From assembly GCA_035279625.1 (NCBI GenBank), contig DATEHK010000173.1, positions 41,144 through 105,143 on the forward strand: DNA of 64,000 bases. The letters are read 5' to 3'. This DNA comes from Gemmatimonadaceae bacterium. Its GTDB lineage: Bacteria; Gemmatimonadota; Gemmatimonadetes; Gemmatimonadales; Gemmatimonadaceae. The translations under genes were made by a program, and so were the position numbers. Positions 1-64,000 of this stretch are shown piece after piece; position 1 is the first letter of the stretch; each line of letters starts with the position of its first letter. Under the pieces are notes generated by a model. That model worked only from the letters and a program-made list of their open reading frames with translations, made no database searches and had not been told where the DNA came from.

Positions 1-353
1 AACAGAATCGTGATGACGAACTGGATGCCTGATCCCGCAAACGCGCCAGGAGACGGCCCGCTGCCGAGCGTCCCTCGCTGCCCGCGCCCAGTAGCAGGCG
101 CTGCCGGTCGCCGCTCTGGATCTCTCATTCGCGCGGTAATGTAGGAGCTTGTGAAATTTTTCGCAAGCTAAGGAAGACCCCGCTCCGATCTACCGGACAT
201 AATAACCGTCTAATCGCCAAGTTTCAGTAGCCTCGCAACTTACGAGTTACCCCACCCTTGACGGCTCGTCCCCGTGTTGATAACTTCGCCTTCAGAATCC
301 GTCTCTTCTCTAGCCTGTCCCGGCCGCCCCAATCCGCGGTCGAGCCCCATCTC

Positions 354-839
354 ATGAGCTCCCGTTTCGTCATCTGGTTACTCTGCGCAGGCGCCGTGTT
401 CGTGGCGTGGAGCCCTCACGCCAAACACAACGAGTCCGCCGCCAGCACGACGAACGACCACCGCGCTGACACGGTCGCGAAAAAAGATGTGCCGTCATCA
501 GCTGCGCTCATCGCCGCCACACAGGTATCCGTCGGCTCCGCCGTACATGTCACCCTGCGCGTCACCAACCGCGCGGATCACGCCGTCGAAATCGATTTCC
601 CCAGCGGAAAAACTCACGACGTCGTGATTCTCGATTCCACCGGTCACGAAGTGTGGCGCTGGAGCGAAGGCCGCATGTTCACCCAGGCGGTTCGCAACAC
701 GCTACTCGGCGCCAACGAAAGCGTCACGTATGAGGAAACGTGGAACCCGCGCGGCCTCACCGGGGATTTCACCGCCGTCGCTCGCCTGGAAAGCAACAAT
801 CATCCCATCCAGCAGCGGTTCGACTTCAAGCTGCCCTAG
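354..839 (+). CDS. Membrane-anchored or secreted protein with a BsuPI-like (intracellular proteinase inhibitor) beta-sandwich domain
   Basis: ORF 258..839. The ATG at 354 gives a hydrophobic N-terminus (FVIWLLCAGAVFVAW). The C-terminal ~110 aa (VHVTLRVTNRADHAVEIDFPSGKTHDVVILDSTGHEVWRWSEG...VTYEETWNP) fit the BsuPI-type pattern. Start is uncertain. Confidence 0.55.
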   Translation: MSSRFVIWLLCAGAVFVAWSPHAKHNESAASTTNDHRADTVAKKDVPSSAALIAATQVSVGSAVHVTLRVTNRADHAVEIDFPSGKTHDVVILDSTGHEVWRWSEGRMFTQAVRNTLLGANESVTYEETWNPRGLTGDFTAVARLESNNHPIQQRFDFKLP

Positions 840-939
840 CCGACGCGCTCGCGCGACCTGATCCCAAGGCCACGCACCCTTAACGCTCCGCGCCCCCGCC
901 GCTACCTTTCGCAAACCCGCGGCCGAATCGGAGGGCGCG

Positions 940-1947
940 TTGGCGACACCGGCTCGATCTTCCGCACACGATGACACGCGCGATGTCCAACTCCTCACCG
1001 AGTTGGCCAACGCGAAGCGTTCACTCGTCGATCAGATCGGACGGCGTATCATCGGCCAGCACGATGTCGTCGAGAACCTCGTCGCGGCGCTCCTTAGCGG
1101 AGGACACGCGCTCCTCGTCGGCGTACCGGGTCTCGCGAAAACCCTGCTCGTCCGAACGCTCGCCGACGCCCTCGACCTCTCGTTCTCCCGCGTGCAATTC
1201 ACGCCGGACCTGATGCCGAGTGACATCACCGGCACGGAGTTGCTCGAGGAAGATCACGCCACCGGTCGCCGCGTGTTCAAGTACGTCAAGGGCCCGATCT
1301 TCGCGAACGCAGTGCTCGCCGACGAGATCAACCGCGCACCTCCGAAAACACAGGCCGCGTTACTACAGGCGATGCAGGAACATGCCGTGACAGCGGCAGG
1401 TCGTACGCATCCGCTGCCGGAACCGTTTTTCGTGCTCGCCACGCAAAACCCGATCGAACAGGAAGGCACCTACCCGCTTCCCGAAGCACAGCTCGACCGC
1501 TTCATGTTCGAGCTGCGCGTCGGCTATCCAACCGCCGATGAAGAGGAGCAGGTCGTGGCCACCACTACCAGCGACACCGAAGCGACGGTCACGCCCGTCC
1601 TCGATGCCCAGCGACTCATTGCGCTCCAGCACCTGGTACGGCGGCTTCCCGCCCCGCCCACGGTCGTTCGCTACGCCGTAGCGCTCGCGCGGTCGACGCG
1701 CCCGGATGCGAAGGAAGCCTCGCCCGAGGTGCGGAAGTACGTGAGCTGGGGCGCCGGTCCGCGGGCCTCACAGTACCTGGTGTTAGGCGCCAAGGCCCGC
1801 GCGGCGATGGACGGCCGCGCCGTGCCCGATCTCGACGACGTCCGGTCCGTCGCCCACGTCGTGCTCAGGCACCGCATCGTGCTCAACTTCCAGGGCGAAG
1901 CCGAGGGCATGACGCCGGAGCGGCTCATCCGGCTCGACGAACGCTAG
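940..1947 (+). CDS. MoxR-family AAA+ ATPase (paralog 1)
   Basis: Walker A GVPGLAKT, Walker [15 protein letters not shown], and [22 protein letters not shown] typical of MoxR. TTG start is preceded by GGAGGG. Confidence 0.9.
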
Positions 1948-1961: not shown

Positions 1962-1985
1962 CGTTAGGCCGTTAGCTCGTTAGGC
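1962..1985 (+). repeat. Three tandem 8-mers CGTTAGGC-CGTTAGCT-CGTTAGGC in a convergent intergenic spacer
   Basis: Read directly at 1962-1969, 1970-1977 and 1978-1985. A fourth related copy, CGCTAGGC (1942-1949), spans the MoxR stop codon. These are copies of the window-wide GTTAGGC motif. Confidence 0.85.
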
Positions 1986-2018: not shown

Positions 2019-3875
2019 TCAGTCTTCGTCGCCCTCGGCCGCGCCTTCCTCCCCGCTCCACCACCGCCGCCACCACGGCGGCCGCGACTCCGGCGCCAAG
2101 GTCCGGTCCACCGCCCTCCGCCACGCATCGCGCATCTCCGCCGCGTCGGCGAACCGCTGCTCGGCGACCGGCGCCAGCCCCCGCTCCAACCACTCCGCGA
2201 TCGCCTCGGGATAGCCGGACAAATCCACGTCACCAGACAATTCGCGCCCCAAAATCGCGCGGCCGTCGCCCACGCCAAACGGCGGCTCACCCGACAAGAG
2301 GTAGGTCACGATCGCCGCCAACCCGAAGCAGTCCACTTGCGGCCCCTGGCCTTCGCCTAACAATTGCTCGGGCGCCGCGAACTCCGGCGTACCCGTGGTG
2401 CTGCTCAGTAGCTCTTCGCCCGTGATCTTCGCCACGCCGAAGTCCGCAATCCGCCACCGCCGATGACGGTCGATCAAGATGTTCTCCGGCTTGAGATCGC
2501 GGTGCACAATTCCAATCGCGTGCGCTGCTGCAAGCCCGTCCAACACCTGATCCACGTGCGACGCGATCTGCTCCACCAATCGCGGCCCCGAGCGCTTCAC
2601 CAAGTCGGTCAGCGAGCCGTTCTCCGCCAACTCCATCGTGTACCATGACACGCCGCCGTTGCTGTCCCAGTCGTAGATCGGCACGATCGCCGGATGCGCC
2701 AGTTGCGCCGCGAGCTGCGCTTCACGCCGGAACCGACGCACGGCGATCTCGTCGTTCGCCACTTGCGGGTGCAACATCTTGAGCGCCACTTCGCGCTCGA
2801 GCGTCAGATCGCGCACCCGCCATACCGAGCCGAATGTTCCGGAGCCGAGTCGCGCGATCACCTCGTAATCTTCGCCCGTCGCCCACCGGAGCCGCTCCTC
2901 TTCGGCGTCGCCTAACGGACGGATCGCCGGCATGGAACCGCTGATGTAGAGCGACGACCGTCCGCCGCCTCCTACCGCGCGCTCGAGCTCGCGCAGCATC
3001 GCGGCCACCGAGTGATACCGCTTCTCCGGATCGCGCTCCAACGCTCGATTGAGCACGCGCGCCACTGCCTGCGGGCAGTCCGGCCGTACCAACGGCAGCG
3101 GCGGCACGTCCGCCGGAGGATACTCGCCCGTGAGCGACGCGAACGCCGTCGCCGCCAATTGCCACTGGTCGCTCTCCGGCGTCGGCAGCCACTCGTCGTT
3201 CGGCCACTCCGGCGCACGCGGCAGGCGGCCTGGAAACGGCATCAGCCCGGCGGGAATCAAGTTGCGCGGCAACGCCCACTCCCACGCCAGCAGCCACAGT
3301 TGCCCCGTCGGCGTCAACCAAATCGACTCGCCGCACACGGCGCCGTGCGCCGTCCCTGTGGTATGCAGATACGCGAGCGCCAATCCGGTCGAACGAAGTA
3401 GCTGGAGCGACGTCCCCAAGTCGTCGGGCCCAACGCGGCGAATCCGCCCTGCCACGCTTTCGCCAGAGATCCACCGCCGCACATACGCCGGCCCGCGTCG
3501 ACTCTGCGGCCCACCTGGCCACCAATCGTACGCCGTCGGAATCGACGAATGCGCCCGATGCGCCAGCGCCCGCGCCTCCGCGCCCAGCCACACCGGGTGA
3601 GCCGGGTCCGGTACGGTCACCAGCGAAAGCGACCTGCCGAGTGCGTCGACGACCTCTTGATAGTGGCGGTTTTCCGCCAGCACACCCTCGGCGCCCCACG
3701 ACCAACCCGCTGGCAGTTGCCAGCTTTCGATGTGCGACGGAAGTTTCGCCGTCACGCTGTGCGGCGAAGAGGCGCCCGGGACCAACGGCGAAATTCCCGT
3801 GTCGGGCGCTGCGTCCGGTGGTGCCGGCGTCCCGCCGGGACGCGAGCCGACACCGTTGGGCGGCGTGACGCTCAC
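2019..3875 (-). CDS. Ser/Thr protein kinase with an N-terminal degenerate kinase-like (pseudokinase) domain
   Basis: The C-terminal half has full Hanks motifs (GSGTFGSV, VALK, HRDLKPENIL, DFG, GTPEFAAPE). The N-terminal half is kinase-like but lacks catalytic residues. GTG start. Confidence 0.85.
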   Translation of the reverse strand: MSVTPPNGVGSRPGGTPAPPDAAPDTGISPLVPGASSPHSVTAKLPSHIESWQLPAGWSWGAEGVLAENRHYQEVVDALGRSLSLVTVPDPAHPVWLGAEARALAHRAHSSIPTAYDWWPGGPQSRRGPAYVRRWISGESVAGRIRRVGPDDLGTSLQLLRSTGLALAYLHTTGTAHGAVCGESIWLTPTGQLWLLAWEWALPRNLIPAGLMPFPGRLPRAPEWPNDEWLPTPESDQWQLAATAFASLTGEYPPADVPPLPLVRPDCPQAVARVLNRALERDPEKRYHSVAAMLRELERAVGGGGRSSLYISGSMPAIRPLGDAEEERLRWATGEDYEVIARLGSGTFGSVWRVRDLTLEREVALKMLHPQVANDEIAVRRFRREAQLAAQLAHPAIVPIYDWDSNGGVSWYTMELAENGSLTDLVKRSGPRLVEQIASHVDQVLDGLAAAHAIGIVHRDLKPENILIDRHRRWRIADFGVAKITGEELLSSTTGTPEFAAPEQLLGEGQGPQVDCFGLAAIVTYLLSGEPPFGVGDGRAILGRELSGDVDLSGYPEAIAEWLERGLAPVAEQRFADAAEMRDAWRRAVDRTLAPESRPPWWRRWWSGEEGAAEGDED

Positions 3876-4553: not shown

Positions 4554-7500
4554 ATGATCCACTTGGTGGGACTCGGACACGCCGTCATAACTGTCGGCGT
4601 CACTCGCCTAACGCAAGCCAGCGAGACGTTATTCGCGTCGGCGTTATTGTTCGTTCGCGAAGCCGGCCGGCCGATCGAACGGCATCGCATCGTCGAGATG
4701 CTGTGGCCGCGCACGTCCGCCCAACGCGCGAATCACCGCCTCCGACAAACGCTCTACCGGCTCAACACCCTCGGCGCCTCGCTGCGCTCCGATCGAGGCC
4801 ACGTCATCTTGCCCGCGCGTTCGGCCCAATCGGATTTCGCTGAGGTCCTCGCCGCCGGACGCGCCGCCGACCCCAAGCGCGTCGCCGAGTTGGTGCAAGG
4901 ACCGTTTCTCCCCGGATACGCGCCGCGCTTCTCCGCGCCGTTCAGCAAGTGGCTCGAGCACGAGCGCGATGTCGTCACATCGAGCTTGCGCCGCGTGCTC
5001 GTTTCCGCCATCGCCGTCCAACGGGACCGGGGCGACTGGGCTGCCGTCGAACGACTCGCGACGCGGTGTCTGCTGCTCGACCCGCTCAACGAGGACGCGA
5101 CCTACGCCCTCGCCCAAGTCGCCGCCGAACACGGCGGCAGAGTGCGCGCACTCGAAATCATCGATGCGTACCTGCGCGAGCTTGGAGACGTCGCCGGCCT
5201 TGTCCGCGTGCCCGTCACGCTGCTCAGACGCCGCATCGGCGAATCCAACTCCTCCGATCCCGACGACGGACGCGACACGTCACAAGTCGGGCGCGAGCAC
5301 GAAATGCACGACATCAAGCGCGTGCTGCAAGGTCTGTTCGCGGCGCGCGGCGAAACCTGTCTGGTGTGCGGCGAAGAAGGTATCGGCAAGTCGCGCTTCG
5401 CAGCGGAAATCGCCCGCGTCGCGCAGCTCGACGGCATCAAGGTCGTGCGCGTCGAAAGCCAAGCGCATGACGCCGACCGTCCGTTAGCCGGCATCATCGA
5501 AGTCGTGCGACGTGTCCGGGCGATGCGAGGCGCCATCGCCGTCGCCGAATCCTCGAAGCGCACCATCGACGCGATCCTGTTGGCCGCGACGGACGCCGTC
5601 GGCGATACCGAGCAGTTCCACACGCGCGTCCGCTCGGCTCTCATCGATCTCGTCGACGCGGTCTCGCACGAACAGCCCGTCGTGCTCATCATCGAAGATG
5701 CGCAATGGCTCGACGGCGCGTCGTGGGCCTGCGTTCGCGCCCTGTCCCGGTGGGCGCTCAAGCATCGTGCACTCACCATCTTGACGTCCAAGCACGCCGA
5801 TATCGCGAGCCAGTTCGACTGCACCGACGCCGTGCGGCCGCGCGTCATGCGACTCCAGCCGCTCGATGAGACCTCGAGTCGCTCGCTCGTGCAACACGTG
5901 ATCGCTGGATCGAGTCGCGACGGGAACGAGTCGTTCACCGAATGGTGCGTCGCCCGCGGCGGCGGCAACCCGTACGTCCTCACCGAGCTGGCGCTTCGCG
6001 CCGAAGGCGACACCGAACCGTTTCGCGCCCCGGCCGCGCTCGAACGCATCGCCTCCGAACGCCTGGGCACACTCCGCGACGTTCCGCTGCGCATCCTCCA
6101 GGCCGTCGCCGTGCTGGAGCGCAGCTCGACCACCTGCCACGTCGAGGAGTTGTTGGGCATCACTCGGTTAGGCCTGCTCGATGGCCTCGATGCGCTTGGC
6201 ATCGCCGGCATGATCGGCATGGAGCGCGACCGCATCGTGCTGCGCCACCGGCTGACGGCCGAAGTGGCGCTCGATCGCCTGTCGCGGCCGGCGCGTCAGC
6301 TCCTGCATCGCCGCGCCGCGGAACTACTCGAGCGCGATCGCTCCACGGACGATTCCGGCGACCTCGCCGGCGCGTGCGCGGAGCACTGGCAGTACGCCGG
6401 CGAACACATTCGGGCCATCGAGCTCCTCACCGGCGCCGCCACACGCCTAACGGGGCGCGGCATGCCCATCGAAGCAGCACGCCTGTACGAGCGCGCCGCG
6501 CAGATCGCAACCTCGCCGCCCGACAAGGTGCACCACCTCACCGCGCGCGCCCACGCCCTGTTCCTCGGCGCCAATTGGGAGCCGTTCGTCCACGTTGCAA
6601 CCGAGCTCGAGTCCCTGCAGCGGCATGCCTCGCCACCCGCCGAGCGTCACGACGACACCGAGCTCGAGCTCTCGCTCGCCAAATGGCGGCTCGGCGTCGA
6701 TCGCCGGGAACTGCTCGCCGACGCGACGCGCTGCGCGGCCGCCGCCGGCGCATCCACCACGCATCGTCTCGCCGCCGCTGCCTGGGCGCTCATGCTCGCG
6801 GACAACCTGTGCGACGATCGCGCCGCTACCGCTGTGATGCGCGCGTCCACATCGGCACTCTCCGCGTCCGACCCGAATGAAGCAGCTGCAGCGTGCCTGC
6901 GCATGGTGTACCACACCGCGTTCGGCAATCCGCAGTCCGGTCTCGAAGCCGCCTATCGTCTCCTGGATTCGCAGCTCGCCGCACCAGATGGGGGCGACAA
7001 GGCGAAATTCCTCTCGCATGCATCGGCAGCGCTTCGTCTCTGTGGCGCGCCTATCGTCGAAGCACGCCAAGCCGCCGCGAGCGCCCTCGAGATCTCCCAA
7101 CGCTTGGGACTCGCCGCGTACGCCGCGCCAGCTGCCAACCAGATCACACTCGCCTACCTCGCCGAGGGCGACACTGCGACCGCTGGTGGATGGTTCGACA
7201 AGGCGCTCTGGCTCATGCAGCACAGCGCTGACACGGTGGGCAGATCCACGATTCTGAGTAACGGCGCCGAGATCGCCCTGCGGGAACGCCGGTTAGGCGA
7301 CGCCGAACGCCTGATCAAGGAGAGCGAACAGGCCGTCGGCAACGCACCCTCGCCCAGATCCGACATTCGCTTGGTCTCGTTCCGGTGGCGGCTGCATCTT
7401 CTGCGCGGCGACGCGGATCCGAACGAGCACGACCTCCGGACGTTCTCCCACTTGCATCGCCGGACGCGGAAGGCGAACGGCCAGGACTTTTCGACGGCCG

Positions 7501-7660: not shown

Positions 7661-8995
7661 CTACGCAAGCTGCGCGACCGAGATCTCCTTGGTTCGCGAG
7701 GGCGCGGCGTCGCGTAAGGCAGGCGATGCGAAGAGCAGGCCGAACATCGGACTGGCGAGGAGTTCATCGCAGATCTTGGGGTCGAACTGGCGCCCGCGAA
7801 ACTTGGTGAGCTCCGACCTCACCTGCAGCTCGCCCAACGCCTTGCGATACGGCCGGTCCGTGGTCATCGCGTCGATCGTGTCGGCGATGAGCACGACGCG
7901 TGAGCCTAACGGAATCTGCTCGCCGGCCAGGCCGTCGGGATACCCGCTGCCATCCCAGTTCTCGTGGTGGTGCCGCACGGCGGATACCAGGTCGCGCAGC
8001 TGCGACACCGTCGACACCAGCTCCGCGCTCTTGATCGGATGCGTCTGCATCACCGCCCACTCGTCCGCCGTGAGCTTGTCCGGCTTCCGCAGGATCGGCG
8101 CGTAGATCTCGTGGATCTTGCCCACGTCGTGCAGCAGCGCCGCCGTCGCGATCCGCTCGATCTCACGCGAGTTGAGACCTAACGCACGGGCGATGAGCTT
8201 CGCATAGTGCGACACGCGCCGTGAGTGGCCGGACGTGTACGGGTCGCGTGCCTCGATGGCCTTGACCATGAGCTCGAGCAACTCCTGGTTCACGCGCTCG
8301 AGCTGGCGATTCGTCTTGTACAGCTGTCGCACACCCAACAGGGGCAGCGCGAGCACCAGCGCGCCGAAGGCCCCGAATCGCGCGTAGCACCACGCGAGCA
8401 AAAACGCAACCGGGCTCGCGAGAACATCGTACGCCAAGCTGCCAAGGTGATTCTGGCGCCAGACCTTCAACAGGTTTTTGCTGTCGTTCGTGGCGATGGC
8501 ACCGCTCACCGCCATCGTGTTCACGGCTATGAACACGATCACCATCACCGAGAACGGGACGCCGACCGTCGCCATCGCCTGTGGCGCGCTCAACCCGCTG
8601 TACTGCAGCAAGGGCTTCCCGCCCAACAAGTCGTACGACAATATCGCCAGCGACGTCGCCAGCGACATCTGGACCACGTTGAAGACCTTCTTCACCCCGT
8701 CCCGCGTGCTGATGATCTCGGTGATGATGTTCGTCACCGAGACCGCGAGCACTGCAATCCAGTTAGGCGAGAGGAGCGCCGTGGCCGTGAACGGGATGAA
8801 CCCGATCGACCCTCCGGCGCCGGCCGGCAGTTGGTACACCAAAAGCAGCGCGAACACCGACAACCCGGACATCCACAGCGCTGCGCGTATGGACCCCGCG
8901 TCGACCATCGGCGCAGTCCAATAGACGCAGATGGCCGCCGCCACTGCGCCCAACGCAACCCCCGACACATACAGTCGGACCCGGTTCATTCGCAC
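7661..8995 (-). CDS. Multi-pass membrane HD-GYP domain protein (putative c-di-GMP phosphodiesterase)
   Basis: About 6-7 hydrophobic helices in the first ~200 aa. C-terminal LLHDVGKI ... HHENWDGSGYPDGL. Confidence 0.85.
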   Translation of the reverse strand: MRMNRVRLYVSGVALGAVAAAICVYWTAPMVDAGSIRAALWMSGLSVFALLLVYQLPAGAGGSIGFIPFTATALLSPNWIAVLAVSVTNIITEIISTRDGVKKVFNVVQMSLATSLAILSYDLLGGKPLLQYSGLSAPQAMATVGVPFSVMVIVFIAVNTMAVSGAIATNDSKNLLKVWRQNHLGSLAYDVLASPVAFLLAWCYARFGAFGALVLALPLLGVRQLYKTNRQLERVNQELLELMVKAIEARDPYTSGHSRRVSHYAKLIARALGLNSREIERIATAALLHDVGKIHEIYAPILRKPDKLTADEWAVMQTHPIKSAELVSTVSQLRDLVSAVRHHHENWDGSGYPDGLAGEQIPLGSRVVLIADTIDAMTTDRPYRKALGELQVRSELTKFRGRQFDPKICDELLASPMFGLLFASPALRDAAPSRTKEISVAQLA

Positions 8996-12323: not shown

Positions 12324-12352
12324 GTGCGCGCGCTCCCAGCGTTAGGCGCCGA

Positions 12353-15621: not shown

Positions 15622-15641
15622 GGGTTGTCTCCTCGAGGTGC

Positions 15642-16796: not shown

Positions 16797-16809
16797 GGCT
16801 CGGGCGTCC

Positions 16810-18981: not shown

Positions 18982-19016
18982 GCGGATCGGTGTAGGAGTG
19001 ATTCGTTAGGCAGGTA

Positions 19017-37773: not shown

Positions 37774-37775
37774 GG

Positions 37776-51903: not shown

Positions 51904-52859
51904 TGACCGCCGAGCAAGTTGCCGAACGCATGGGCGCAGTGCGCGCAGCCGTCGCGTCCCGCGTCGTTGGGCAGGACGCCGTGATCGACGAGGTGCTCGT
52001 GGCGTTCCTCGCCCGCGGACACGCACTGTTGGAGGGCGTTCCCGGCACGGCGAAGACGCTCCTGGTCCGCCTTCTCGCGAGTGCGCTCAATGCGAAGTTC
52101 GGCCGCATTCAGTTCACGCCCGACCTCATGCCCTCGGACATCACGGGCACGACCGTGCTGCAGGATGGCGGCCGGACGAGCGAATTCCGGCCCGGCCCGG
52201 TGTTCACCGACCTCTTGCTGGCGGACGAGATCAATCGCGCGCCGGCCAAGACGCAGGCGGCGCTGCTCGAGGCGATGCAGGAGCGGCAGGTGACCGTCGA
52301 TGGCACCGCCCGTCCGTTAGGCACGCTGTTCTCGGTATTCGCGACGCAGAACCCGGTGGAGTACGAGGGCACGTACCCGCTGCCCGAGGCGCAGCTCGAC
52401 CGATTCCTCCTCAAGGTCAGGGTTCCGTATCCGGCCAAAGAGGCCGAGCTCGCGATGTTGGCCAACTACGCATCGGGATTCGATGCCGAGCGGGCCTCGG
52501 ACATTCGGTTGGAGCCGGTGCTCAACGCGGAGTCGTGCGCGGAGGTGCGCCAGACCGTGGACCGGATCACGGTAGCGCCCGAAGTGCGCGAGTACATCGC
52601 ATCGATCGTGCGCGCAACCCGCGAGGAGACCGCCCTCACGTTAGGCGGATCGCCGCGCGCCACGGTGGCGTTGTTTCGCGTGTCGCGCGCGGCGGCGGTG
52701 ATCGCCGGCCGCGATTTCGTGACGCCCGACGACGTGAAAGACTACGCGTTGCCGGTGCTTCGCCACCGCGTGGTGGTGTCGCCCGAGGTCGAAGTGGAGG
52801 GCCGCACCAGCGACGACGTGATGCAAGCGGTGCTGATGCGCGTGGTGGCACCGAAATGA
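51900..52859 (+). CDS. MoxR-family AAA+ ATPase (paralog 2)
   Basis: [44 protein letters not shown]. Confidence 0.9.
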   Translation: MMTAEQVAERMGAVRAAVASRVVGQDAVIDEVLVAFLARGHALLEGVPGTAKTLLVRLLASALNAKFGRIQFTPDLMPSDITGTTVLQDGGRTSEFRPGPVFTDLLLADEINRAPAKTQAALLEAMQERQVTVDGTARPLGTLFSVFATQNPVEYEGTYPLPEAQLDRFLLKVRVPYPAKEAELAMLANYASGFDAERASDIRLEPVLNAESCAEVRQTVDRITVAPEVREYIASIVRATREETALTLGGSPRATVALFRVSRAAAVIAGRDFVTPDDVKDYALPVLRHRVVVSPEVEVEGRTSDDVMQAVLMRVVAPK

Positions 52860-56151: not shown

Positions 56152-58443
56152 CTAGCGGACGCCCTCGGACGAATCGATCGCGCAGGTCAGCACGCCCGGA
56201 GCAGGCTCGCTGTCGCGCATGAGAAGATCGATCTGCAACCCTCGATCCGCAAGCGCGCTCTCGATGGATCCGCCTAACATGGAGCCAGCGACCTCGGCGT
56301 GCGCCGCTCCGTAGGGCGCGAGCATTGCCCAACGCCATGCGTCCTCGGCGGCCAATGCCGTGCCGCGCTCGCGCATGATACCAGATGCGCGGGCGCGCGC
56401 AGCGAGCTCGACCAGACGGCGGCGCGCGGCCGTCAGTTGCTGCTCGCGATCGCCGGCGGCGTTACCGCATCGGCCGCCATCGACGATCGCAATCACCGAA
56501 TCGCGAACGCCGCGGACCGGCGCCACGAGTGCGGCGAGGGACGCGGAGCTGTCGATACCGGTCGTGTCCAACGGCACCTGGAGGACACGCCGCACCAGGT
56601 CATACGGCGTCAGCACCCGACCGGGGCCGTACCGAGTCAGGTACCAATCGCGCGTCGAGCGCGGCGGCGGCGCGACATCATCGAGCACGCTCACCAGCGC
56701 GGACCCCGCCTCGCCGGTGACGTCGGGCGGCGTCACTGTGACGTAGCCGGTGAAGAGGTCATCCTGCACCGACGAGAGATAGCCGTTCATCCGCCCTTCG
56801 CGCGCCAACGACACAGCCACGAACCAGTCGACGCTGCGCGCGAACACTTCCGTTGGGCGCATGCTCAAGACGTCGCGATCATCCGGATCGACGGCCGTCA
56901 GCGACGCCGCGGTCAGGCCGCGAAGCGAGGCGGCCAACTGGCCGCCGCGCGCGTCGCGGACGGCGCGATCCGTGGCGTAGTCGCCGCGCACGGCGTAGCG
57001 ACGCTCGGCCGCCTGCCAGTCGAGATCGTGCGCGACCTCGTGCGCGATGGTCCCGGCACTCGTGGCGGACGGCAGATAGATGACCCGGTGCACCGGATCG
57101 TGCAGGGCGAGCGCCACACCGCGGAGCGGATTCTCGCCGAAGTGGATGCGCAGCCCCGTGAGATCGAGCGACGGCAGCACGCGATCGAGATCGGCGAGCG
57201 CCGAGCCGAGCATCGCGCGATAGTACGGACGCCAGGCCGCCGGCACGCTGGCATCGAAGGTCACCGCCGTTAGGCCGTAGCGGTCGGTGAGCTGCGCGTC
57301 GGTCGGAGCCGGATCGCCGGGATACCACGGCGTTTCCTGCGCGTATGCACGGAGCGCGACCGCGGCAGCGAGCGTCGTCCGGGCGACCGGGATGCCGGGC
57401 GCTTCCTGTGCGACTAACGCACGCTCGGCGGCAAAGCCCTCTTCGCCGCGCGAGCGATACAGGAAGCGCATGCGTGCCGCGTGCGCGCCCGTCTCGTCCG
57501 CCGACGTCCGCAGCAGGTCATCGCGGTGCGTCCACATCGCGACGACCACCGGCGTCTCGGGAGGTCGCGCATGGCCCAACGCGAGGCGCTCCAATTGGAC
57601 TGCCGCGAGTCCGAGCAGCGATGCGCTCGAATCGGATTCGCGTTCCTTGGGCGCCTGACCGGATGCGCTGCGGAGCTCATCCTGAAGCTCGGCCGTCAGG
57701 CGCATGGCCTCGAGCTCGACGTCCGGAGGCAGGCGCTCCATGAGCGGCTGTTCGACTCTGAAGCGTCGCTCGCGACGCCACGTCTGTAACAGCGTCAACG
57801 GATCCGCGTCGTCGCGCCATGCGGCGCGCAACAGGTCGTTGACGTCGCGCTTGGCGAGCTCGCGATCGCGTACGAGCGCCGCAGCCTGCGCCGCGATGTG
57901 CGGTGCGTCGCCGCGCAAGCGATGCTCCGCGGCCGCAAGTGTGTACGCGAGACGCACCGCCAACTCCCCGGCGCGGGGATCATGTGCGTCGCGGATAGTG
58001 TGGTCGATGAGCGCGTACTGTTCGTCGCCGTCGGGCGCGCTCACGAGGGACACACTGTCAGTGAGCGAGTCGAGCGCAATCGGGTTCACGTGATCGGCAT
58101 TGCCGTCGACCGTGCGCGCGAGCAGCGCCCACGCAAGCGAATCGCGAGAGGCGACGGTGAGACGCGGGTCGCCCAACGCATAGTCGATCAATCGAAATGG
58201 ACCGCCGAGGCCGAGTCGCTGCCGCTCGAGGTACCCGAGCGCCACGACATGCTCGGAGTCGCCTTCGGACTGCATCTGCGATGGCGGATGCGCAATCAGC
58301 CGCTCGGCGTACGCGCGGCCCGAGCGCAGTTGCCCCGCGATCTGCGGACCAACGGCGATGCGCTCGCACGCGCCGGCGACGAGCACCAGCGCGCCAAGCA
58401 CGACGAGAGCGCGAACGCGACGAAAATGGAGCGGCGGGATCAT
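56152..58443 (-). CDS. Large lipoprotein with an HExxH metalloprotease-like motif
   Basis: Signal plus lipobox LVLVAGAC. A single HEVAH motif (GTIAHEVAHDLDW). Otherwise no recognisable family. Confidence 0.55.
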   Translation of the reverse strand: MIPPLHFRRVRALVVLGALVLVAGACERIAVGPQIAGQLRSGRAYAERLIAHPPSQMQSEGDSEHVVALGYLERQRLGLGGPFRLIDYALGDPRLTVASRDSLAWALLARTVDGNADHVNPIALDSLTDSVSLVSAPDGDEQYALIDHTIRDAHDPRAGELAVRLAYTLAAAEHRLRGDAPHIAAQAAALVRDRELAKRDVNDLLRAAWRDDADPLTLLQTWRRERRFRVEQPLMERLPPDVELEAMRLTAELQDELRSASGQAPKERESDSSASLLGLAAVQLERLALGHARPPETPVVVAMWTHRDDLLRTSADETGAHAARMRFLYRSRGEEGFAAERALVAQEAPGIPVARTTLAAAVALRAYAQETPWYPGDPAPTDAQLTDRYGLTAVTFDASVPAAWRPYYRAMLGSALADLDRVLPSLDLTGLRIHFGENPLRGVALALHDPVHRVIYLPSATSAGTIAHEVAHDLDWQAAERRYAVRGDYATDRAVRDARGGQLAASLRGLTAASLTAVDPDDRDVLSMRPTEVFARSVDWFVAVSLAREGRMNGYLSSVQDDLFTGYVTVTPPDVTGEAGSALVSVLDDVAPPPRSTRDWYLTRYGPGRVLTPYDLVRRVLQVPLDTTGIDSSASLAALVAPVRGVRDSVIAIVDGGRCGNAAGDREQQLTAARRRLVELAARARASGIMRERGTALAAEDAWRWAMLAPYGAAHAEVAGSMLGGSIESALADRGLQIDLLMRDSEPAPGVLTCAIDSSEGVR

Positions 58444-58586: not shown

Positions 58587-59618
58587 GTGACTAATGAACA
58601 AGTGCGCTACCTCACGGTTGACCCCGAGCGACCGGACGCCAATATCGTTCGGCGCGCGGCCGATGTGTTGCGACGCGGCGGCCTTGTCGCATTCCCCACC
58701 GAGACAGTGTACGGCCTTGGCGCCAACGCGCTCGATGCGACCGCGGTCGCCAAAATTTTTTCGGCGAAAGGCCGGCCGAGCTACGACCCGCTGATCGTAC
58801 ATGTGTTGAACGCGGCAGGTGCACGTTCGGTTGCGCGTGCATGGCCCGAAGCCGCGGACCGTCTCGCGGCGGCGTTCTGGCCGGGGCCGCTTACGTTGGT
58901 CGTGCCCAAAGAAGCCGTCGTGCCGGATATCGTGACGGCCGGCTTGGACACGGTTGCCGTGCGAGTACCGTCGCACCCCGTTGCCCGTGCAATTCTGGAG
59001 GCAGCGAGCGTGCCGGTTGCCGCGCCAAGCGCCAACCGATTCACCGAAGTCTCGCCGACCCGCGCCGAGCACGTGGCACGCACGTTGGGCGATCGCGTGG
59101 ACCTGATCATCGATGGCGGCCCAACGACGGTCGGCATCGAGTCGACCGTGGTGGACGTGTCCGGTGAGCGGCCGACGGTCTTGCGGCCGGGGACGATTCC
59201 GATTCCGGATCTGGCCGCCGCGCTCGGCGCGTTAGACATCGCGGTCGCGACGGCGGACAGCGGAGCCGCAACGCCGCGCCGGTCGCCCGGGATGTTGGAC
59301 CGGCACTACGCGCCACGGGCACGGCTGCAGCTGTTCGATGATCGGTCGCGGGGCGGCGCGGCGCACACGGCCGCGGAGCACGAGGCAGCCGGCGACACGG
59401 TGGGCGCCATGCTCCTGACCAGCCTCGACGCGCCGGTGCGCCACGCGCTCGCGATGCCTAACGACCCAGCCGGCTATGCGCGCGCCCTCTACCACGCGTT
59501 GCACACGCTCGACGCCGCGGGCTGCGACCTGATATTCGTGGAAGCGGTGCCGGACACGCCGGCGTGGGCAGGCGTGCGCGACCGGCTGGTCCGCGCCGCC
59601 CACCCGAAACACGCCTAA
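58587..59618 (+). CDS. tsaC: L-threonylcarbamoyladenylate synthase (YrdC domain plus Sua5 C-terminal domain)
   Basis: GGLVAFPTETVYGLGANA, RPSYDPLIVHV, GPLTLV, SANRF. GTG start. Confidence 0.9.
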   Translation: MTNEQVRYLTVDPERPDANIVRRAADVLRRGGLVAFPTETVYGLGANALDATAVAKIFSAKGRPSYDPLIVHVLNAAGARSVARAWPEAADRLAAAFWPGPLTLVVPKEAVVPDIVTAGLDTVAVRVPSHPVARAILEAASVPVAAPSANRFTEVSPTRAEHVARTLGDRVDLIIDGGPTTVGIESTVVDVSGERPTVLRPGTIPIPDLAAALGALDIAVATADSGAATPRRSPGMLDRHYAPRARLQLFDDRSRGGAAHTAAEHEAAGDTVGAMLLTSLDAPVRHALAMPNDPAGYARALYHALHTLDAAGCDLIFVEAVPDTPAWAGVRDRLVRAAHPKHA

Positions 59619-59627
59619 CGGTAAGTC

Positions 59628-60593
59628 TTACGCCGAGCGGGCGCCGCCCACCAGTCGGCGGAATGCGCGGCCGAAACGGGACGATCCCGCACCGCGGTCC
59701 AGCGCTTCGGCCAATTGGCGGCCGTACTGCCAGCGCTTGTCCAACTGCTTCTCCAAACAGCGCTCGACCGCCGCGATCAGATCACGCGGCGCACCCGGCG
59801 CGAGCGAGGCGAGCGGCGGCACCGGCGAGAACATGTGCTTGGCCGAGATTTCGGCGAACGATTCGCCGGTGAAGGGCAGGCGGCCGGCGAGCATCAGGTA
59901 GCCGAGCACGCCCAACCCATAGAGATCGCTGCGGCCATCGAGGTCAGCCTCACCCACGGCCTGCTCCGGCGACATGAAGTGCGGCGTGCCGAACGCACAG
60001 CGCAGTTCCGACGGACGCGGATCCCACGACCGGCGGCGCGCGACGCTGAAGTCGGCAAGCAGCGCGCGTCCGGTTTCGCGATCGACGAGCACGTTCTCCG
60101 GCTTGAGATCGCGGTGCACGACGCCCTGCGCGTGCGCATAGTCCAACGCGCGGGCGATCTGAATGAGCACCAGCCGGGCCTCTCCTGGCGCGAGCCGGCC
60201 CTGCGCGCGAATGCGGTCGCCTAACGAATCGCCCGGCACGTAGCGCATCGCCATGTACATCACGCGCGCCGTCTCGCCGAACGCATAGAGCGGCACGATG
60301 CCCGGGTGCTCGAGCTGCGCGGAAAGGCGGGCTTCGGCGCGGAAGCGTTCGCGCGCATCCTCGCGCGTACGCAGATCGTTGCGCAACACCTTGAGCGCAA
60401 CGTGGCGATGCAAGGCAACATCGCGCGCGAGATACACGGCTCCCATCCCACCGCGACCCAACGGACGAACCACCTGGTACTGGCGCGTGAGTTCGCGCGC
60501 CACGAGATCGCGTTCGATGTCCGGGGTGCCGCGCTCGAGCGTCGGCGTTAGACGGGGACCGCGGACGACAGAATCGAGGACGAGCGCTTCCAT
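59628..60593 (-). CDS. Ser/Thr protein kinase (kinase domain with short tail)
   Basis: GRGGMGAVY, VALK, HRDLKPENVL, DFS, GTPHFMSPEQ. Confidence 0.9.
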   Translation of the reverse strand: MEALVLDSVVRGPRLTPTLERGTPDIERDLVARELTRQYQVVRPLGRGGMGAVYLARDVALHRHVALKVLRNDLRTREDARERFRAEARLSAQLEHPGIVPLYAFGETARVMYMAMRYVPGDSLGDRIRAQGRLAPGEARLVLIQIARALDYAHAQGVVHRDLKPENVLVDRETGRALLADFSVARRRSWDPRPSELRCAFGTPHFMSPEQAVGEADLDGRSDLYGLGVLGYLMLAGRLPFTGESFAEISAKHMFSPVPPLASLAPGAPRDLIAAVERCLEKQLDKRWQYGRQLAEALDRGAGSSRFGRAFRRLVGGARSA

Positions 60594-60887: not shown

Positions 60888-62846
60888 TCAGCCGCGCAAA
60901 ACTTCTCGCGCTTTCGTTAGGAGTTCCTGCGGCGTGAACGGCTTCTGCAGGAACGGGCGGCCCTTGTCGAGAATGCCCTGGCGAATCACGACGTCGTCGG
61001 TGTAGCCGGACACGAACAGGATCCTGGACGATGGCCGCGCCGATGCGAGTCGCTCGGCGAGTTCGCGGCCCCCCATCTCGGGCATCACGACGTCGGTGAT
61101 GACGAGGTCGACGTCGCCACCGTGGCCGGCGGCCACGCGCATCGCATCCTTGCCGTGACGCGCTTCGAGCACCGCGTAGCCGTGGGTCTCGAGCACGCGG
61201 CGCATGAGCGGGCGGAGCGATTCGTCGTCCTCCACCAGGAGCACCGTCTCGTTGCCGTTAGGCGTGGAGACGGTGTCGTCGCTTCCCGGCCCGGCGGCCG
61301 CGTCGCCCACCGCCAAGCGCGGAAGGCAGATGTCCACCGTCGTCCCGCGCCCCGGCGTGCTGCGCACGACGACGTCGCCGTCGCTCTGTTTGACGATGCC
61401 GTAGACGGTCGCGAGACCCAGGCCGGTGCCCTGCCCCAATCCTTTAGTGGTGAAGAACGGCTCGAAGACGTGCGCCAACGTTTCCGCGCTCATGCCGACA
61501 CCGGTGTCGCGTACGGAGAGCGACACGTAGCTGCCGGGTGGCAAGTCGACTCCGTCGTCGAGCTCGTGACCGGTGCGCAGCACGTTGTCGGTCTCGATGA
61601 GCAGCACACCGCCATCGGGCATCGCGTCGCGGGCATTCACGGCGAGGTTCATGAGCACCTGCTCCACCTGACCGGGATCGGCGCGCACCCAGCACGATTC
61701 GGGCGCCAGATGGATCACGAGCTCGACGTCTTCACCGATCAGCCTAACGAGCATGCGCTCCATCTCGGCGACGGTGTCGTTGAGATCGAGCACGCGGGGT
61801 TGGAGCAGCTGCTTGCGGCTGAAGGCGAGCAGTTGTCGCGTGAGCGCGGTGGCGCGATCGGCCGACTTCTGAATCTCTCGCGCATCGATGGCGCGCGGAT
61901 CGTCCGGCGGCAAGCCGTCGCGCAACAGTTGGCTGTAGGTCTTGATCGCAGTGAGAATGTTGTTGAAGTCATGCGCGATGCCGCCGGCGAGTCGTCCCAC
62001 GGCTTCCATTTTCATCGCGTGACTCAACTGACCCTCGAGCTGCTTGCGCTCGCTGATGTCGACCACCGCAATGCCGGTGCCGAGGAGCTGTTGGTCCGGC
62101 GTCCTAACGGGATAGGCGCTCACCAACCACGAGCTGGCGCGACCGAATCCCGAGGGCCGCACATCATCGAGCTCGAACGCGACCATGGGGTGTCCCGTCT
62201 CGCTCACGTTCTGCAGCGTGGACTCGAGGCGGCTCGCGAGCACCGGCAGCGCGTCGTGCAACGGACGGCCTGCGTGACCGTCCTCGCCGACACCGTTCAT
62301 TTCGGCGAGGACGCGATTGACCAGCACGCAATTGAAGTCGCGATCGACGTACGCGAAGCCCACGGGAGACGAGGCGAGCAGCGTATCGAGCACGGCCAGC
62401 GCCTCCTGCCGTCGACGCGCGAGCAGCACGGCGCTCTCGCGATCGATCGCGGCTTCGGTGGCGATGCGAGCCAACTCCGCTTCGCGCACCTTGGCCGCAT
62501 CGCGCGAGCGACGGATCATCGCCACGCCTTCCGACAGGAGACCGAACATCACGAGGCGAGAGACGAACCCCCATATACTCGCGGTCTCGCGGAAGCCCGG
62601 AACGTGTACCAGCCAGGTGAGGCCGGCTGCACCGAGTATCGCGCCGAAGAGACCGGCGATGCGACCGCGGCGCCACGTGCAGAGAGTGACCGCGGCGCCG
62701 AACACGAAGAACGCCGTGGGATGCGCCACGAGCTCGGACGCGCGACCAACGAAGATCGCAGCGGCGACCCACACGAGCGTTTCTGCGTACGGCACAATTG
62801 CGCGCACGGGCGTGAACGTCGGTCTGCTCATCCGCTCGCCTTCCAT
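60888..62846 (-). CDS. Hybrid sensor histidine kinase (TM, PAS, HisKA, HATPase, C-terminal receiver)
   Basis: H-box GIAHDFNNIL, NLAVNARDAM, DTGVGM, GTGLGLATV. Receiver has VLLVEDDE ... LVITDVVMP ... KP. Confidence 0.85.
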   Translation of the reverse strand: MEGERMSRPTFTPVRAIVPYAETLVWVAAAIFVGRASELVAHPTAFFVFGAAVTLCTWRRGRIAGLFGAILGAAGLTWLVHVPGFRETASIWGFVSRLVMFGLLSEGVAMIRRSRDAAKVREAELARIATEAAIDRESAVLLARRRQEALAVLDTLLASSPVGFAYVDRDFNCVLVNRVLAEMNGVGEDGHAGRPLHDALPVLASRLESTLQNVSETGHPMVAFELDDVRPSGFGRASSWLVSAYPVRTPDQQLLGTGIAVVDISERKQLEGQLSHAMKMEAVGRLAGGIAHDFNNILTAIKTYSQLLRDGLPPDDPRAIDAREIQKSADRATALTRQLLAFSRKQLLQPRVLDLNDTVAEMERMLVRLIGEDVELVIHLAPESCWVRADPGQVEQVLMNLAVNARDAMPDGGVLLIETDNVLRTGHELDDGVDLPPGSYVSLSVRDTGVGMSAETLAHVFEPFFTTKGLGQGTGLGLATVYGIVKQSDGDVVVRSTPGRGTTVDICLPRLAVGDAAAGPGSDDTVSTPNGNETVLLVEDDESLRPLMRRVLETHGYAVLEARHGKDAMRVAAGHGGDVDLVITDVVMPEMGGRELAERLASARPSSRILFVSGYTDDVVIRQGILDKGRPFLQKPFTPQELLTKAREVLRG

Positions 62847-63048
62847 GGTAGATGCGTCAGGCCCGGGGAGGTCTTCGAATCAATGTCGGACGAGTAAGCG
62901 CCCGCGCACGGAAGTCGCGCAGCACGGAGGCTGGATGAGCGGGAATATAGGGCGTGCATTCGTCATGCGCTCCTCGGTGCCGGCGACGGACACTAGGTTT
63001 CGCAAGAGCGGCGCACAGTGGGCCGCGTATTTCACCGCGGAGATCGGC

Positions 63049-64000
63049 ATGTCTTCAGGTGTTTGTAGATTCGTTGTCGCGCTCGGTGTGGTAACGTGCA
63101 CCATGGGCGCTGCGGGCGCATTGGCGCAGGAGTCGTCGGCGCACGCGCCGTCGCTCTCGGCGGCCATTCCCGCCGATCCAAACGTGACCGCAGGCGTTCT
63201 GCCTAACGGGCTGCACTACTACATTCGCGTGAACCACAAGCCCGAGCATCGCGCCGAGCTGCGGCTGGTGGTGAACGCCGGCTCGGTGCTCGAGGACAGC
63301 GCGCAGCGCGGCATCGCGCACCTCGTGGAGCACATGGCCTTCGGCGGCACCACGCACTTCAAGCGCGAAGCGCTGGTGAACTATTTGGAGTCGACCGGTG
63401 TGCGATTCGGCGCCGACCTCAACGCCGGAACGAGCTTCGACGAAACGGTCTATCAGCTCACCGTTCCGACCGACAGCGCGAAGCTCTTGCAACGCGGCAT
63501 TCAGATTCTAAGCGACTGGGCCGGCGGCGTCACGTTCGACACCGCAGCGCTCAGGCGTGAGCGGCGCGTCGTGACGGAAGAGTGGCGCCTGGGCCGCGGC
63601 GCCAGCCAGCGCATCCAAGACAAGCAATTCCCCATCTTGTTTGCGAACTCGCGGTACGCGCGCCGCCTTCCGATCGGCGACCCGCACATCATCGCGACGG
63701 CACCGCGCTCCGAGCTCCTTCGCTTTTACCACGAATGGTATCGGCCCGATCTCATGGCGGTGGTCGTCGTCGGCGACTTCGACAAGGCGCAAGTCGAACA
63801 ATGGGTGAAGCACGATCTGGGATCCGTGCCCGAGCCCGCGTTGCGCCCAGAGCGCGTGATATATCCGGTTCCGGACCACGACAGCACGCTCGTGTCAGTG
63901 GTGACCGATCCGGAAGCGACGACATCTCGAGTGACGATGTACTTCCTGCAGCCGGTGCGTCGCGACAGCACGGTGGGCGACTATCGCGAGGCGTTGGTGC
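63049..64000 (+). CDS. M16 (pitrilysin) family zinc peptidase, 5' part, running off the window
   Basis: Absent from the ORF track because no stop is reached. ATG 63049 is followed by a signal peptide (VVALGVVTCTMGAAGALAQE), then the inverted zinc motif HLVEHMAF and family-typical RRERRVVTEEWR. Confidence 0.85.
   Translation, partial: MSSGVCRFVVALGVVTCTMGAAGALAQESSAHAPSLSAAIPADPNVTAGVLPNGLHYYIRVNHKPEHRAELRLVVNAGSVLEDSAQRGIAHLVEHMAFGGTTHFKREALVNYLESTGVRFGADLNAGTSFDETVYQLTVPTDSAKLLQRGIQILSDWAGGVTFDTAALRRERRVVTEEWRLGRGASQRIQDKQFPILFANSRYARRLPIGDPHIIATAPRSELLRFYHEWYRPDLMAVVVVGDFDKAQVEQWVKHDLGSVPEPALRPERVIYPVPDHDSTLVSVVTDPEATTSRVTMYFLQPVRRDSTVGDYREALV

Follow-up and report, generated by a model that had tools for sequence, protein, structure and literature searches.

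The full 64,000-nt stretch analysed here (the window), part of contig DATEHK010000173.1 of a Gemmatimonadaceae bacterium, encodes, by Pfam annotation, ordinary housekeeping proteins (topA, hslUV, gcvT, aroC, a xerC/D-type recombinase, two-component systems), and no tRNA was found in it. It also contains type IV pilus genes and two minor-pilin operons, as the initial annotation had it; pilM, pilN, pilO and pilQ and both minor-pilin clusters have Pfam matches, and regulators of the PilS/PilR type are present as well. Strewn among these genes are 69 exact copies of the heptamer GTTAGGC, which is the subject of this study, and which may be a signal comparable to the DNA uptake sequences (DUS) of Neisseriaceae (GCCGTCTGAA and its dialects) and the uptake signal sequences (USS) of Pasteurellaceae.

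The word GTTAGGC in the window

Exact 7-mer scanning of both strands places 44 copies on the + strand and 25, as GCCTAAC, on the - strand, the same number and the same positions as reported initially. The roughly ten-fold over-representation that was claimed at that time, with about 7 copies expected, agrees with zero-order base composition (7.6 expected), but the fold value comes to about 25 once dinucleotides or codons are controlled for. Dinucleotide-preserving shuffles of the window give an expectation of 2.5 copies and a maximum of 7, and GTTAGGC comes first when the 7-mers of the window are ranked by z-score. A synonymous-codon shuffle, in which codons are swapped among all genes while every protein and the global codon usage are preserved, leaves 1.25 sense and 1.0 antisense copies expected in coding sequences, where 38 and 24 are found; enrichment persists, in other words, under codon- and protein-aware shuffling (62 coding copies against about 2). 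In the coding sequence of a 79.7-kb composite of the same contig, the same null predicts 3.6 copies, and there are 83 (23x).

The limits of the word are sharp. Of the 82 TTAGG pentamers of the window, 69 are flanked by G on the 5' side and by C on the 3' side. C precedes 41 of the 69 copies (59%) and G follows 43 of them, in line with the favoured C at -1 and G at +1 of the initial annotation. Among copies outside the Leu-Gly frame, C at -1 reaches 79-90%, against a background of 49%; C at -1 belongs to the signal at the DNA level, and the motif is a sharply defined 7-mer, or an 8-mer with C at -1. As for the further one-mismatch copies noted earlier, there is no general enrichment of such words: on the window contig and under the synonymous-shuffle null only GTTGGGC (3.2x), GTTAGTC (4.4x) and GTTAGGA (3.7x) are enriched, while none of the rest exceeds expectation. 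That TTA-containing variants look depleted is in part artefactual: the TTA codons that the null spreads around would not be there without the motif. A longer repeat or a mobile element as the carrier was considered and rejected, since no dispersed repeat containing GTTAGGC was found in the window; the short word stands by itself and is no piece of a mobile element. A full-text literature search for GTTAGGC returned only primers and unrelated matches, and we found no description of the motif in the searchable literature.

By our own gene calls, on which the frame classes rest, 38 copies are sense, 24 antisense and 7 non-coding. All four of the six frames that are free of stop codons are occupied, and stop codons occur in the two that are unused. 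The sense frame xxG-TTA-GGC (Leu-Gly) holds 36 copies, which is 26% of its synonymous opportunities; the antisense frames xxG-CCT-AAC (Pro-Asn) and xGC-CTA-ACx (Leu-Thr) hold 12 copies each (63% and 34% of opportunities), and GTT-AGG-C (Val-Arg, sense) holds 2 (4%), so that every frame listed at the outset was recovered. More than codon usage is affected: 36 of the 68 TTA codons of the window sit in G-TTA-GGC, and half of its Pro-Asn dipeptides (12/24) carry the motif. Placements singled out in the initial annotation were likewise confirmed, namely the stop codon of tsaC (GCC-TAA, 59613-59618), spacers of 29 bp and 35 bp (copies at 12341 and 19005) and the kinase H-box near 41230 (GNPLGAI, 41231-41237). 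When the sequence was extended to 89.4 kb of the window contig, which is a metagenome contig of 114.8 kb in ENA, 109 copies were counted (1.22/kb), 10 of them non-coding (9.2%), in proportion to a non-coding fraction of 8.9%. The acting force targets the DNA word, not codons or peptides.

On the extended contig, 33 of the 37 genes of at least 1 kb have at least one copy. Spacings below 125 bp number 6, against 15.3 for random placement (P=0.003); copies are more evenly spaced than random and avoid one another.

Conservation and patchy distribution among Gemmatimonadota

One of the window proteins has orthologues of 78-88% identity in six metagenome-assembled genomes (MAGs) of Gemmatimonadaceae, and the six syntenic loci, at 81-89% nucleotide identity, carry 1.0-1.4 copies/kb. 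In a seven-genome alignment of 17.6 kb, with relatives at that same nucleotide identity, 67-93% of comparisons show the window copies unaltered, as against 25-46% for generic coding 7-mers and 18-35% for other Leu-Gly 7-mers; at orthologous sites the motif is thus kept far more often than control 7-mers (67-93% vs 18-46%). The commonest alternative state at these sites is GTTGGGC, a synonymous transition away. In distant motif-free relatives, the orthologous codons are the ordinary high-GC CTC/CTG-GGC, and often other residues are encoded, such as Ile or Val for Leu, Pro-Ala for Pro-Asn and Leu-Leu-Leu for Arg-Leu-Thr. Since both codons and residues differ, GTTAGGC has arisen by synonymous and non-synonymous changes at tolerant positions, a mode of creation also described for USS and DUS (PMC2817400). 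The alternative raised initially, that the word is a mutational derivative of GTTGGGC, is insufficient, and GTTGGGC as the sole mutational source is rejected: it is itself enriched rather than depleted, and motif-free relatives mostly have CTC/CTG-GGC or other amino acids.

With distance gauged by amino-acid identity to the DUF885 protein of the window (orthologues of a neighbouring gene), the syntenic loci have 1.2-1.6 copies/kb at 100-75% identity, 0.67 copies/kb at 58%, 0.37 copies/kb in one lineage at 48%, and 0-0.05 copies/kb in three lineages at 51%, 48% and 46%. The sites of the lineage with 0.37/kb differ from those of the window clade, which points to independent gain there, or to turnover of the word. 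In unrelated loci of other Gemmatimonadota (73-78% GC), GTTAGGC occurs in the same frames at 0.8-1.6/kb, and a 60%-identical neighbour of one such locus has zero copies. The trait is patchy within Gemmatimonadota, with complete absence from the syntenic loci of some close relatives.

The word is also abundant in a cultured type strain, Gemmatirosa kalamazoonensis KBS708. Its plasmid 1 (NZ_CP007129.1; 1,106,233 bp; 72.7% GC) has 892 copies (456 +, 436 -), distributed over every 50-kb bin, and its called genes have 488, against 18 expected under the synonymous-shuffle null (27x); the first 50 kb of plasmid 2 have 25, against 1.3 expected. Among the variants on plasmid 1, under the same null, GTTGGGC stands at 1.8x and GTTAGGA at 0.3x, and for GTTAGTC 0 copies were observed (7.6 expected). 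No fewer than 288 of the 314 TTA codons lie within GTTAGGC, and C at -1 is found in 87% of copies (82-97% depending on the frame class, where the background is 54%). Spacing on plasmid 1 is again more even than random, with a coefficient of variation of 0.85 (1.00 +/- 0.03 for random placement) and 77 spacings below 200 bp (132 +/- 10 for random placement). Enrichment is not confined to the window, then, but extends over the 89.4 kb of its contig, the loci of its relatives and two Gemmatirosa megaplasmids.

Uptake signal or another function of the DNA word

We propose that GTTAGGC, preferably preceded by C, may be a lineage-specific tag of self DNA, of the DUS/USS kind, accumulated by biased uptake and recombination (molecular drive); our belief in this reading and our doubt about it are of equal weight. 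The broader proposition, that Gemmatimonadota have a third, independently evolved uptake-sequence system with the word (C)GTTAGGC, patchy through gain and loss or horizontal transfer of the receptor, is put forward tentatively, with doubt slightly on top. Uptake, receptor and drive, all three of them inferred, would work together as follows. Competent Gemmatimonadota cells would bind and import double-stranded DNA by a type IV pilus-dependent route, with a surface receptor favouring the 7-8-bp word in either orientation; imported fragments would recombine into the chromosome, and mutations creating or improving the word would therefore be over-transmitted, and those destroying it under-transmitted. 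The word would come to saturate the positions that proteins tolerate, chiefly Leu-Gly, Pro-Asn and x-Leu-Thr sites, as well as spacers, and the end state would be about one copy per kb at fairly even spacing. The pilus genes at 31275..36446 would be the machinery that such a signal uses.

The proposal, which was already that of the initial annotation, rests on analogy. Like DUS and USS, GTTAGGC is short and lineage-specific, has a density of about one per kb and occurs on both strands with no polarity relative to replication; it lies inside genes in tolerated frames, shifting peptide and codon usage; orthologous sites retain it, and its spacing is more even than random; the strength of its flank varies by lineage (C at -1 in 59% of copies in the window and 87% in Gemmatirosa); and type IV pilus genes are present in the motif-bearing window. 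The known uptake sequences, too, have no general orientation bias (PMC2346458) and reshape peptide and codon usage at tolerant protein positions (PMC2817400). The uptake reading survives all the computational checks by which the initial annotation would have it refuted (codon shuffle, spread and skew), but no receptor match and no association with terminators or inverted repeats was obtained for it.

These and several other observations weigh against it or set the word apart from DUS and USS. The cognate receptor is the minor pilin ComP in Neisseriaceae, and a minor pilin (ComN/PpdA) is predicted for Pasteurellaceae; when three pilin-like proteins of the window were compared with PDB sequences (E<=1), there was no match to ComP or another DNA-receptor pilin, and the one protein that matched anything did so through the N-terminal helix common to generic pilins. 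None of comEA, comEC and dprA lies within the 64-kb window, and no report of natural transformability in Gemmatimonadota, a phylum different from that of the known systems, was found in the searched literature. The core is 7-8 bp, whereas known uptake sequences have 9-12, and it occurs in high-GC genomes and is built on their rarest codons; it is also patchy and absent in close relatives, whereas DUS and USS are family-wide. About half of DUS/USS copies lie in predicted terminators, often as inverted pairs (10.1101/2025.10.24.684340). GTTAGGC has no such enrichment in spacers (9.2% of copies vs 8.9% non-coding), its adjacent pairs within 60 bp in Gemmatirosa are 23 direct and 3 inverted, and a single inverted pair was seen, in relatives of clade B; terminator placement is typical of the DUS/USS family, not strictly defining. 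Orientation on the window contig is mildly and inconsistently biased, with 67 of the 109 copies on the G-rich strand (61%, p=0.02; opportunity-normalised odds ratio about 1.9) and all 17 copies in a block of + strand genes at 44.8-54.3 kb on the + strand. Finally, the cyanobacterial word HIP1 (highly iterated palindrome 1, GCGATCGC) is an example of a hyper-abundant conserved word that need not be an uptake signal (PMC5861425), and all the genomic signatures are equally expected from purifying selection for any orientation-neutral DNA-binding function.

A rival of the latter kind is serious, even if we hold it to be unlikely: GTTAGGC would be the site of an abundant, orientation-neutral chromosomal protein, with a role in structuring the nucleoid or of the segregation type; weak purifying selection, acting in very large populations, would preserve each copy, and uptake would not be involved. 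It accounts for copies that are conserved, evenly spaced, unpolarised and found on every replicon examined. Cooperative binding would be in keeping with the short arrays, of period 7-17 bp, that occur in spacers and on metagenome contigs. HIP1, a conserved palindrome enriched 15- to 300-fold, has been given this interpretation (PMC5861425), its function being unsettled (PMC5861425; PMC4390886), and according to a preprint it boosts natural transformation (10.1101/2024.09.10.611283). GTTAGGC is likewise a hyper-abundant word of 7-8 bp, found in multiple frames, conserved between genomes and patchy among lineages, but HIP1 is palindromic with methylated GATC and CGATCG sites, while GTTAGGC is asymmetric and missing from the motifs listed as methylated in Gemmatirosa. 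The search yielded no candidate protein, selection at each site would have to be strong enough to impose rare codons and replace amino acids at thousands of positions, and syntenic close relatives are entirely without the word; a dispensable uptake specificity would be easier to gain and lose than a nucleoid organiser. Improbable, in our estimate, is a methylation-linked repair bias, modelled on HIP and very-short-patch (VSP) repair, in which a 5-methylcytosine (m5C) methyltransferase marks the word and a Vsr-like mismatch endonuclease converts near-cognates. Sequencing by the single-molecule real-time (SMRT) method detects m5C poorly, so the Gemmatirosa methylome is compatible with such a mark; the patchy distribution resembles that of mobile methyltransferase genes, and the commonest alternative state, GTTGGGC, is a transition. 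HIP abundance, furthermore, follows cognate methyltransferases (PMC4390886). However, the SMRT methylome of KBS708 consists of three N6-methyladenine (m6A) motifs, RGATCY, ATGCAC and CCAGN7TCA, and GTTAGGC is absent from the methylated motifs of this motif-rich strain (PMC3974934). Repair of T:G to C:G, moreover, acts at one position and drains one neighbour word, and could not produce an excess of 23-27x with seven sharp positions; VSP repair would drive GTTAGGC toward GTTGGGC, away from the abundant word; GTTGGGC shows enrichment instead of depletion; several positions, and the amino acids too, are different in motif-free relatives; and the word lacks the symmetry of HIPs.

The strand excess on the window contig, including the co-oriented block, would favour a polar signal read by RecBCD/AddAB or FtsK in repair or segregation, similar to Chi (GCTGGTGG and analogues) or to the FtsK-orienting polar sequences (KOPS) and architecture-imparting sequences (AIMS), and GTTAGGC is, like these, short, over-represented and found throughout core genes, and G/T-rich in the manner of Chi sites; we nevertheless give this explanation very little credence. 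Replichores of Gemmatirosa plasmid 1 were taken from the extremes of cumulative GC skew and validated by the KOPS-like control word GGGCAGGG, which is 74.5% co-oriented. On this basis 464 of the 892 copies (52.0%) are on the G-rich strand, exactly as are pooled words of the same composition (52.0%), and normalising for opportunity gives an odds ratio of 0.99 (p=0.92), with opportunities used alike on leading and lagging strands (Leu-Gly 13.6/13.8%, Pro-Asn 39.0/38.9%, Leu-Thr 4.9/5.3%). There is thus no strong replichore skew, which argues against a Chi/KOPS-type function, and strong polarity of that type is excluded. Chi, KOPS and AIMS are strongly co-oriented with replication and only few-fold enriched, known Chi sites riding on common codons, whereas GTTAGGC is unpolarised and reaches about 25x on rare ones. 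On the window contig, the left arm has no reversal of usage (Leu-Gly sites 27% vs 31%), and we treat the excess, driven by one gene block, as local heterogeneity. Within that block (44800-54300), the conversion rate of Leu-Gly sites is 54% (19% outside it), and all 5 antisense opportunities are left unused. An origin of the orientation bias in compositional skew was rejected for the main (Leu-Gly) class, because one G and one C come from its synonymous positions and the effect of skew cancels; in Gemmatirosa, moreover, the motif and words of matched composition share the same 52%. What confidence the uptake signal and its three rivals leave over belongs to something not yet considered.

To our knowledge, the only documented cases of sequence-specific DNA uptake come from two families of Proteobacteria, both of them animal-associated. 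If GTTAGGC is indeed an uptake signal, self-selective transformation evolved repeatedly and operates in soil, and there is species-selective natural transformation in an abundant, barely cultured soil phylum. The hypothesis is directly testable, as the word is abundant in the cultured KBS708, and if it holds, adding the word to constructs might ease genetic manipulation. GTTAGGC could also serve as a lineage marker for binning metagenomic contigs and as a flag for recently acquired DNA. Should uptake not be the answer, it would be a second hyper-abundant motif beside HIP1, asymmetric and without detected m6A, that would constrain models for both.

Positions of the copies and other repeated words

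Table 1. GTTAGGC copies and pilus gene clusters in the window; copies were placed by exact scan, and frames follow our gene calls.
Feature	Position	Strand	Context
copy	1782..1788	+	sense Leu-Gly, MoxR-type ATPase gene 940-1947; intact in 6/6 aligned relatives
two copies (1963, 1979) and one degenerate	1963..1985	+	three 8-bp units between convergent genes
copy	2355..2361	-	sense Leu-Gly, Ser/Thr kinase gene 2019-3875
copy	2910..2916	-	sense Leu-Gly, Ser/Thr kinase gene 2019-3875
copy	4606..4612	-	antisense xGC-CTA-ACx (Leu-Thr), AAA_16 gene 4554-7643
copy	6167..6173	+	sense Leu-Gly, AAA_16 gene 4554-7643
copy	6445..6451	-	antisense Leu-Thr, AAA_16 gene 4554-7643
copy	7292..7298	+	sense Leu-Gly, AAA_16 gene 4554-7643
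copy	7904..7910	-	sense Leu-Gly, HD-domain gene 7661-8995; GTTGGGC in clade B
copy	8762..8768	+	antisense Pro-Asn, HD-domain gene 7661-8995
copy	10438..10444	+	antisense Pro-Asn, sigma-54 activator gene 10267-11829; Pro-Ala in motif-free L007
copy	11197..11203	-	sense Leu-Gly, sigma-54 activator gene 10267-11829; Ile-Gly in L007
copy	12341..12347	+	29-bp spacer between gcvT and MoCF gene
copy	12665..12671	-	sense Leu-Gly, gcvT 12353-13492
copy	12986..12992	+	antisense Pro-Asn, gcvT 12353-13492
minor-pilin operon (PilX_N protein, two N_methyl pilins, GspH/FimT-like pilin)	13609..17768	-	almost motif-free; no ComP match
copy	17162..17168	+	antisense Leu-Thr, minor pilin gene 16810-17238
copy	18564..18570	-	sense GTT-AGG (Val-Arg), carbamoyltransferase gene 18070-18981
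copy	19005..19011	+	35-bp spacer downstream of hslU
copy	20304..20310	+	antisense Pro-Asn, hslU 19017-20492
copy	22484..22490	+	antisense Pro-Asn, xerC/D-type recombinase gene 21629-22609
copy	22808..22814	+	antisense Leu-Thr, GIDA-family gene 22570-23910
copy	24681..24687	-	sense Leu-Gly, topA 23952-26432
copy	26091..26097	-	sense Leu-Gly, topA 23952-26432
copy	27710..27716	+	antisense Leu-Thr, chorismate synthase gene 27385-28659
copy	27946..27952	-	sense Leu-Gly, chorismate synthase gene 27385-28659
copy	28514..28520	+	antisense Leu-Thr, chorismate synthase gene 27385-28659
copy	29834..29840	+	antisense Pro-Asn, gene 28772-31336
copy	30119..30125	+	antisense Pro-Asn, gene 28772-31336
pilM, pilN, pilO, putative pilP, pilQ	31275..36446	-	Pfam matches (none for pilP)
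copy	31453..31459	+	antisense Leu-Thr, pilQ secretin gene 31275-33215
copy	31845..31851	-	sense Leu-Gly, pilQ 31275-33215
copy	33123..33129	-	sense Leu-Gly, pilQ 31275-33215
copy	33632..33638	+	antisense Pro-Asn, gene 33212-34009
copy	34926..34932	+	antisense Pro-Asn, pilN 34644-35381
copy	35560..35566	+	antisense Leu-Thr, pilM 35403-36446
second minor-pilin cluster (PilX_N protein, two N_methyl pilins)	36640..39007	-	one motif copy
copy	38125..38131	+	antisense Leu-Thr, pilin-like gene 37776-38672
copy	39111..39117	-	sense Leu-Gly near 3' end, response-regulator gene 39105-40463
copy	40832..40838	-	sense Leu-Gly, histidine kinase gene 40460-41713
copy	41231..41237	-	sense Leu-Gly (GNPLGAI), histidine kinase gene 40460-41713
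copy	41764..41770	-	sense Leu-Gly, response-regulator gene 41710-43089
copy	42038..42044	+	antisense Leu-Thr, response-regulator gene 41710-43089
copy	42973..42979	-	sense Leu-Gly, response-regulator gene 41710-43089
copy	43360..43366	+	antisense Leu-Thr, PilS-like kinase gene 43086-44783
copy	43668..43674	-	sense Leu-Gly, PilS-like kinase gene 43086-44783
copy	45266..45272	+	sense Leu-Gly, CNNM/CorC gene 44874-46217
copy	46058..46064	+	sense Leu-Gly, CNNM/CorC gene 44874-46217
copy	46366..46372	+	sense Leu-Gly, RF-1-domain gene 46214-46642
copy	48173..48179	+	just 5' of start call of LPG-synthase-like gene 48188-50026; inside longer ORF 47834-50026
copy	48298..48304	+	sense Leu-Gly, LPG-synthase-like gene 48188-50026
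copy	48673..48679	+	sense Leu-Gly, LPG-synthase-like gene 48188-50026
copy	49189..49195	+	sense Leu-Gly, LPG-synthase-like gene 48188-50026
two copies (49342, 49366), 17 bp apart	49342..49372	+	both sense Leu-Gly, LPG-synthase-like gene 48188-50026
copy	51303..51309	+	sense Leu-Gly, DUF4350 gene 50695-51903
copy	51726..51732	+	sense Leu-Gly, DUF4350 gene 50695-51903
copy	52316..52322	+	sense Leu-Gly, MoxR gene 51900-52859
copy	52640..52646	+	sense Leu-Gly, MoxR gene 51900-52859
copy	53155..53161	+	sense Leu-Gly, DUF58 gene 52856-54277
copy	53383..53389	+	sense Leu-Gly, DUF58 gene 52856-54277
copy	53926..53932	+	sense Leu-Gly, DUF58 gene 52856-54277
copy	55384..55390	+	antisense Pro-Asn, RDD/SpoIIM gene 54244-56085
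copy	56272..56278	-	sense Leu-Gly, gene 56152-58443
copy	57269..57275	+	antisense Leu-Thr, gene 56152-58443
copy	59456..59462	-	antisense Pro-Asn, tsaC/Sua5 gene 58587-59618
copy	59613..59619	-	overlaps tsaC stop codon (GCC-TAA)
copy	60219..60225	-	sense Leu-Gly, Ser/Thr kinase gene 59628-60593
copy	61257..61263	+	antisense Pro-Asn, hybrid histidine kinase gene 60888-62846
copy	61742..61748	-	sense GTT-AGG (Val-Arg), hybrid histidine kinase gene 60888-62846
copy	63201..63207	-	antisense, peptidase M16 gene starting at 62935 (+) and extending beyond window end

On the extended contig, four genes of at least 1 kb are without a copy; three of them encode minor-pilin or PilX-like proteins (13609-16796, 36640-37743), and the first of these clusters (13609-16796) has a lower GC content, about 0.62; the scarcity of the motif in pilin genes is compatible with their fast turnover or horizontal exchange. 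The spacer between convergent genes at 1963-1985 has gathered copies in two different arrangements: three tandem 8-bp units in the window clade (GTTAGGCC, GTTAGCTC, GTTAGGCG), and in sister clade B (L002, 7437-7459) the inverted pair GTTAGGC-N9-GCCTAAC, a potential hairpin.

The GC skew of the window flips irrespective of gene strand, from about -0.1 up to about 13 kb to between +0.05 and +0.1 at 28-52 kb; the sign change falls at about 13000-20000 and the cumulative G-C minimum at about 20.2 kb, an origin-like pattern, and no cluster of DnaA boxes, nor anything above chance, was found around the switch. In one relative, the orthologous region occupies the interval 6-28 kb away from the end of a contig of 4.03 Mb. 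Gemmatirosa plasmid 1 (NZ_CP007129.1) has its largest motif-free stretch at 1021206-1032069 (10.9 kb, GC 0.74); this stretch holds the cumulative GC-skew minimum (1,026,862) and may be the replication origin region.

Random loci were also sought in viral and metagenome collections with the pattern CGTTAGGCG-N0-30-CGTTAGGCG. These scans returned mostly chance matches and tandem arrays on short contigs, unusable for polarity, and motif-rich contigs of 73-78% GC surfaced among them. Head-to-tail arrays of GTTAGGC were seen on high-GC metagenome contigs L161 (8646-8687), L144 (2776-2881), L118 (82-123), L129 (58-78), L142 (2328-2348) and L190 (4472-4492), and also on L149, L182, L083, L086, L114, L160 and L168; a number of them repeat with period 7, frequently where a contig ends, and others are short, with periods of 9-17 bp, beside dispersed copies. 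The IMG/VR contigs L037, L016/L070, L047 and L014 (predicted viral, about 66% GC) have 0.4-1.2 copies/kb, below the host and above chance, and possibly represent phages or prophages whose hosts are motif-rich.

Alternative "dialect" words in two motif-free loci were rejected, the candidates being local REP-like (repetitive extragenic palindrome) or tandem repeats. In the Gemmatimonadetes MAG L007, a REP-like element with the sequence GCGGGCGGCATGAATGCCGCC recurs at 45-bp intervals (22834-22990 and 20085), and in L203 (67% GC) AT-rich inverted or tandem repeats (CAGAATACAGA, ATTCTGAAA) occupy two spacers (5981-6045, 17507-17570). The words CGATCGC and CGCGATC, which contain the core of cyanobacterial HIP1, are at 6-12x the zero-order expectation in all Gemmatimonadota loci (the window, L199, L202, L203, L007), motif-free ones included, with 57 copies of CGATCGC in the 21.6 kb of L199; RGATCY is m6A-methylated in Gemmatirosa. 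A maximal-order Markov expectation accounts for the window counts of both words, which may reflect a codon or dinucleotide effect.

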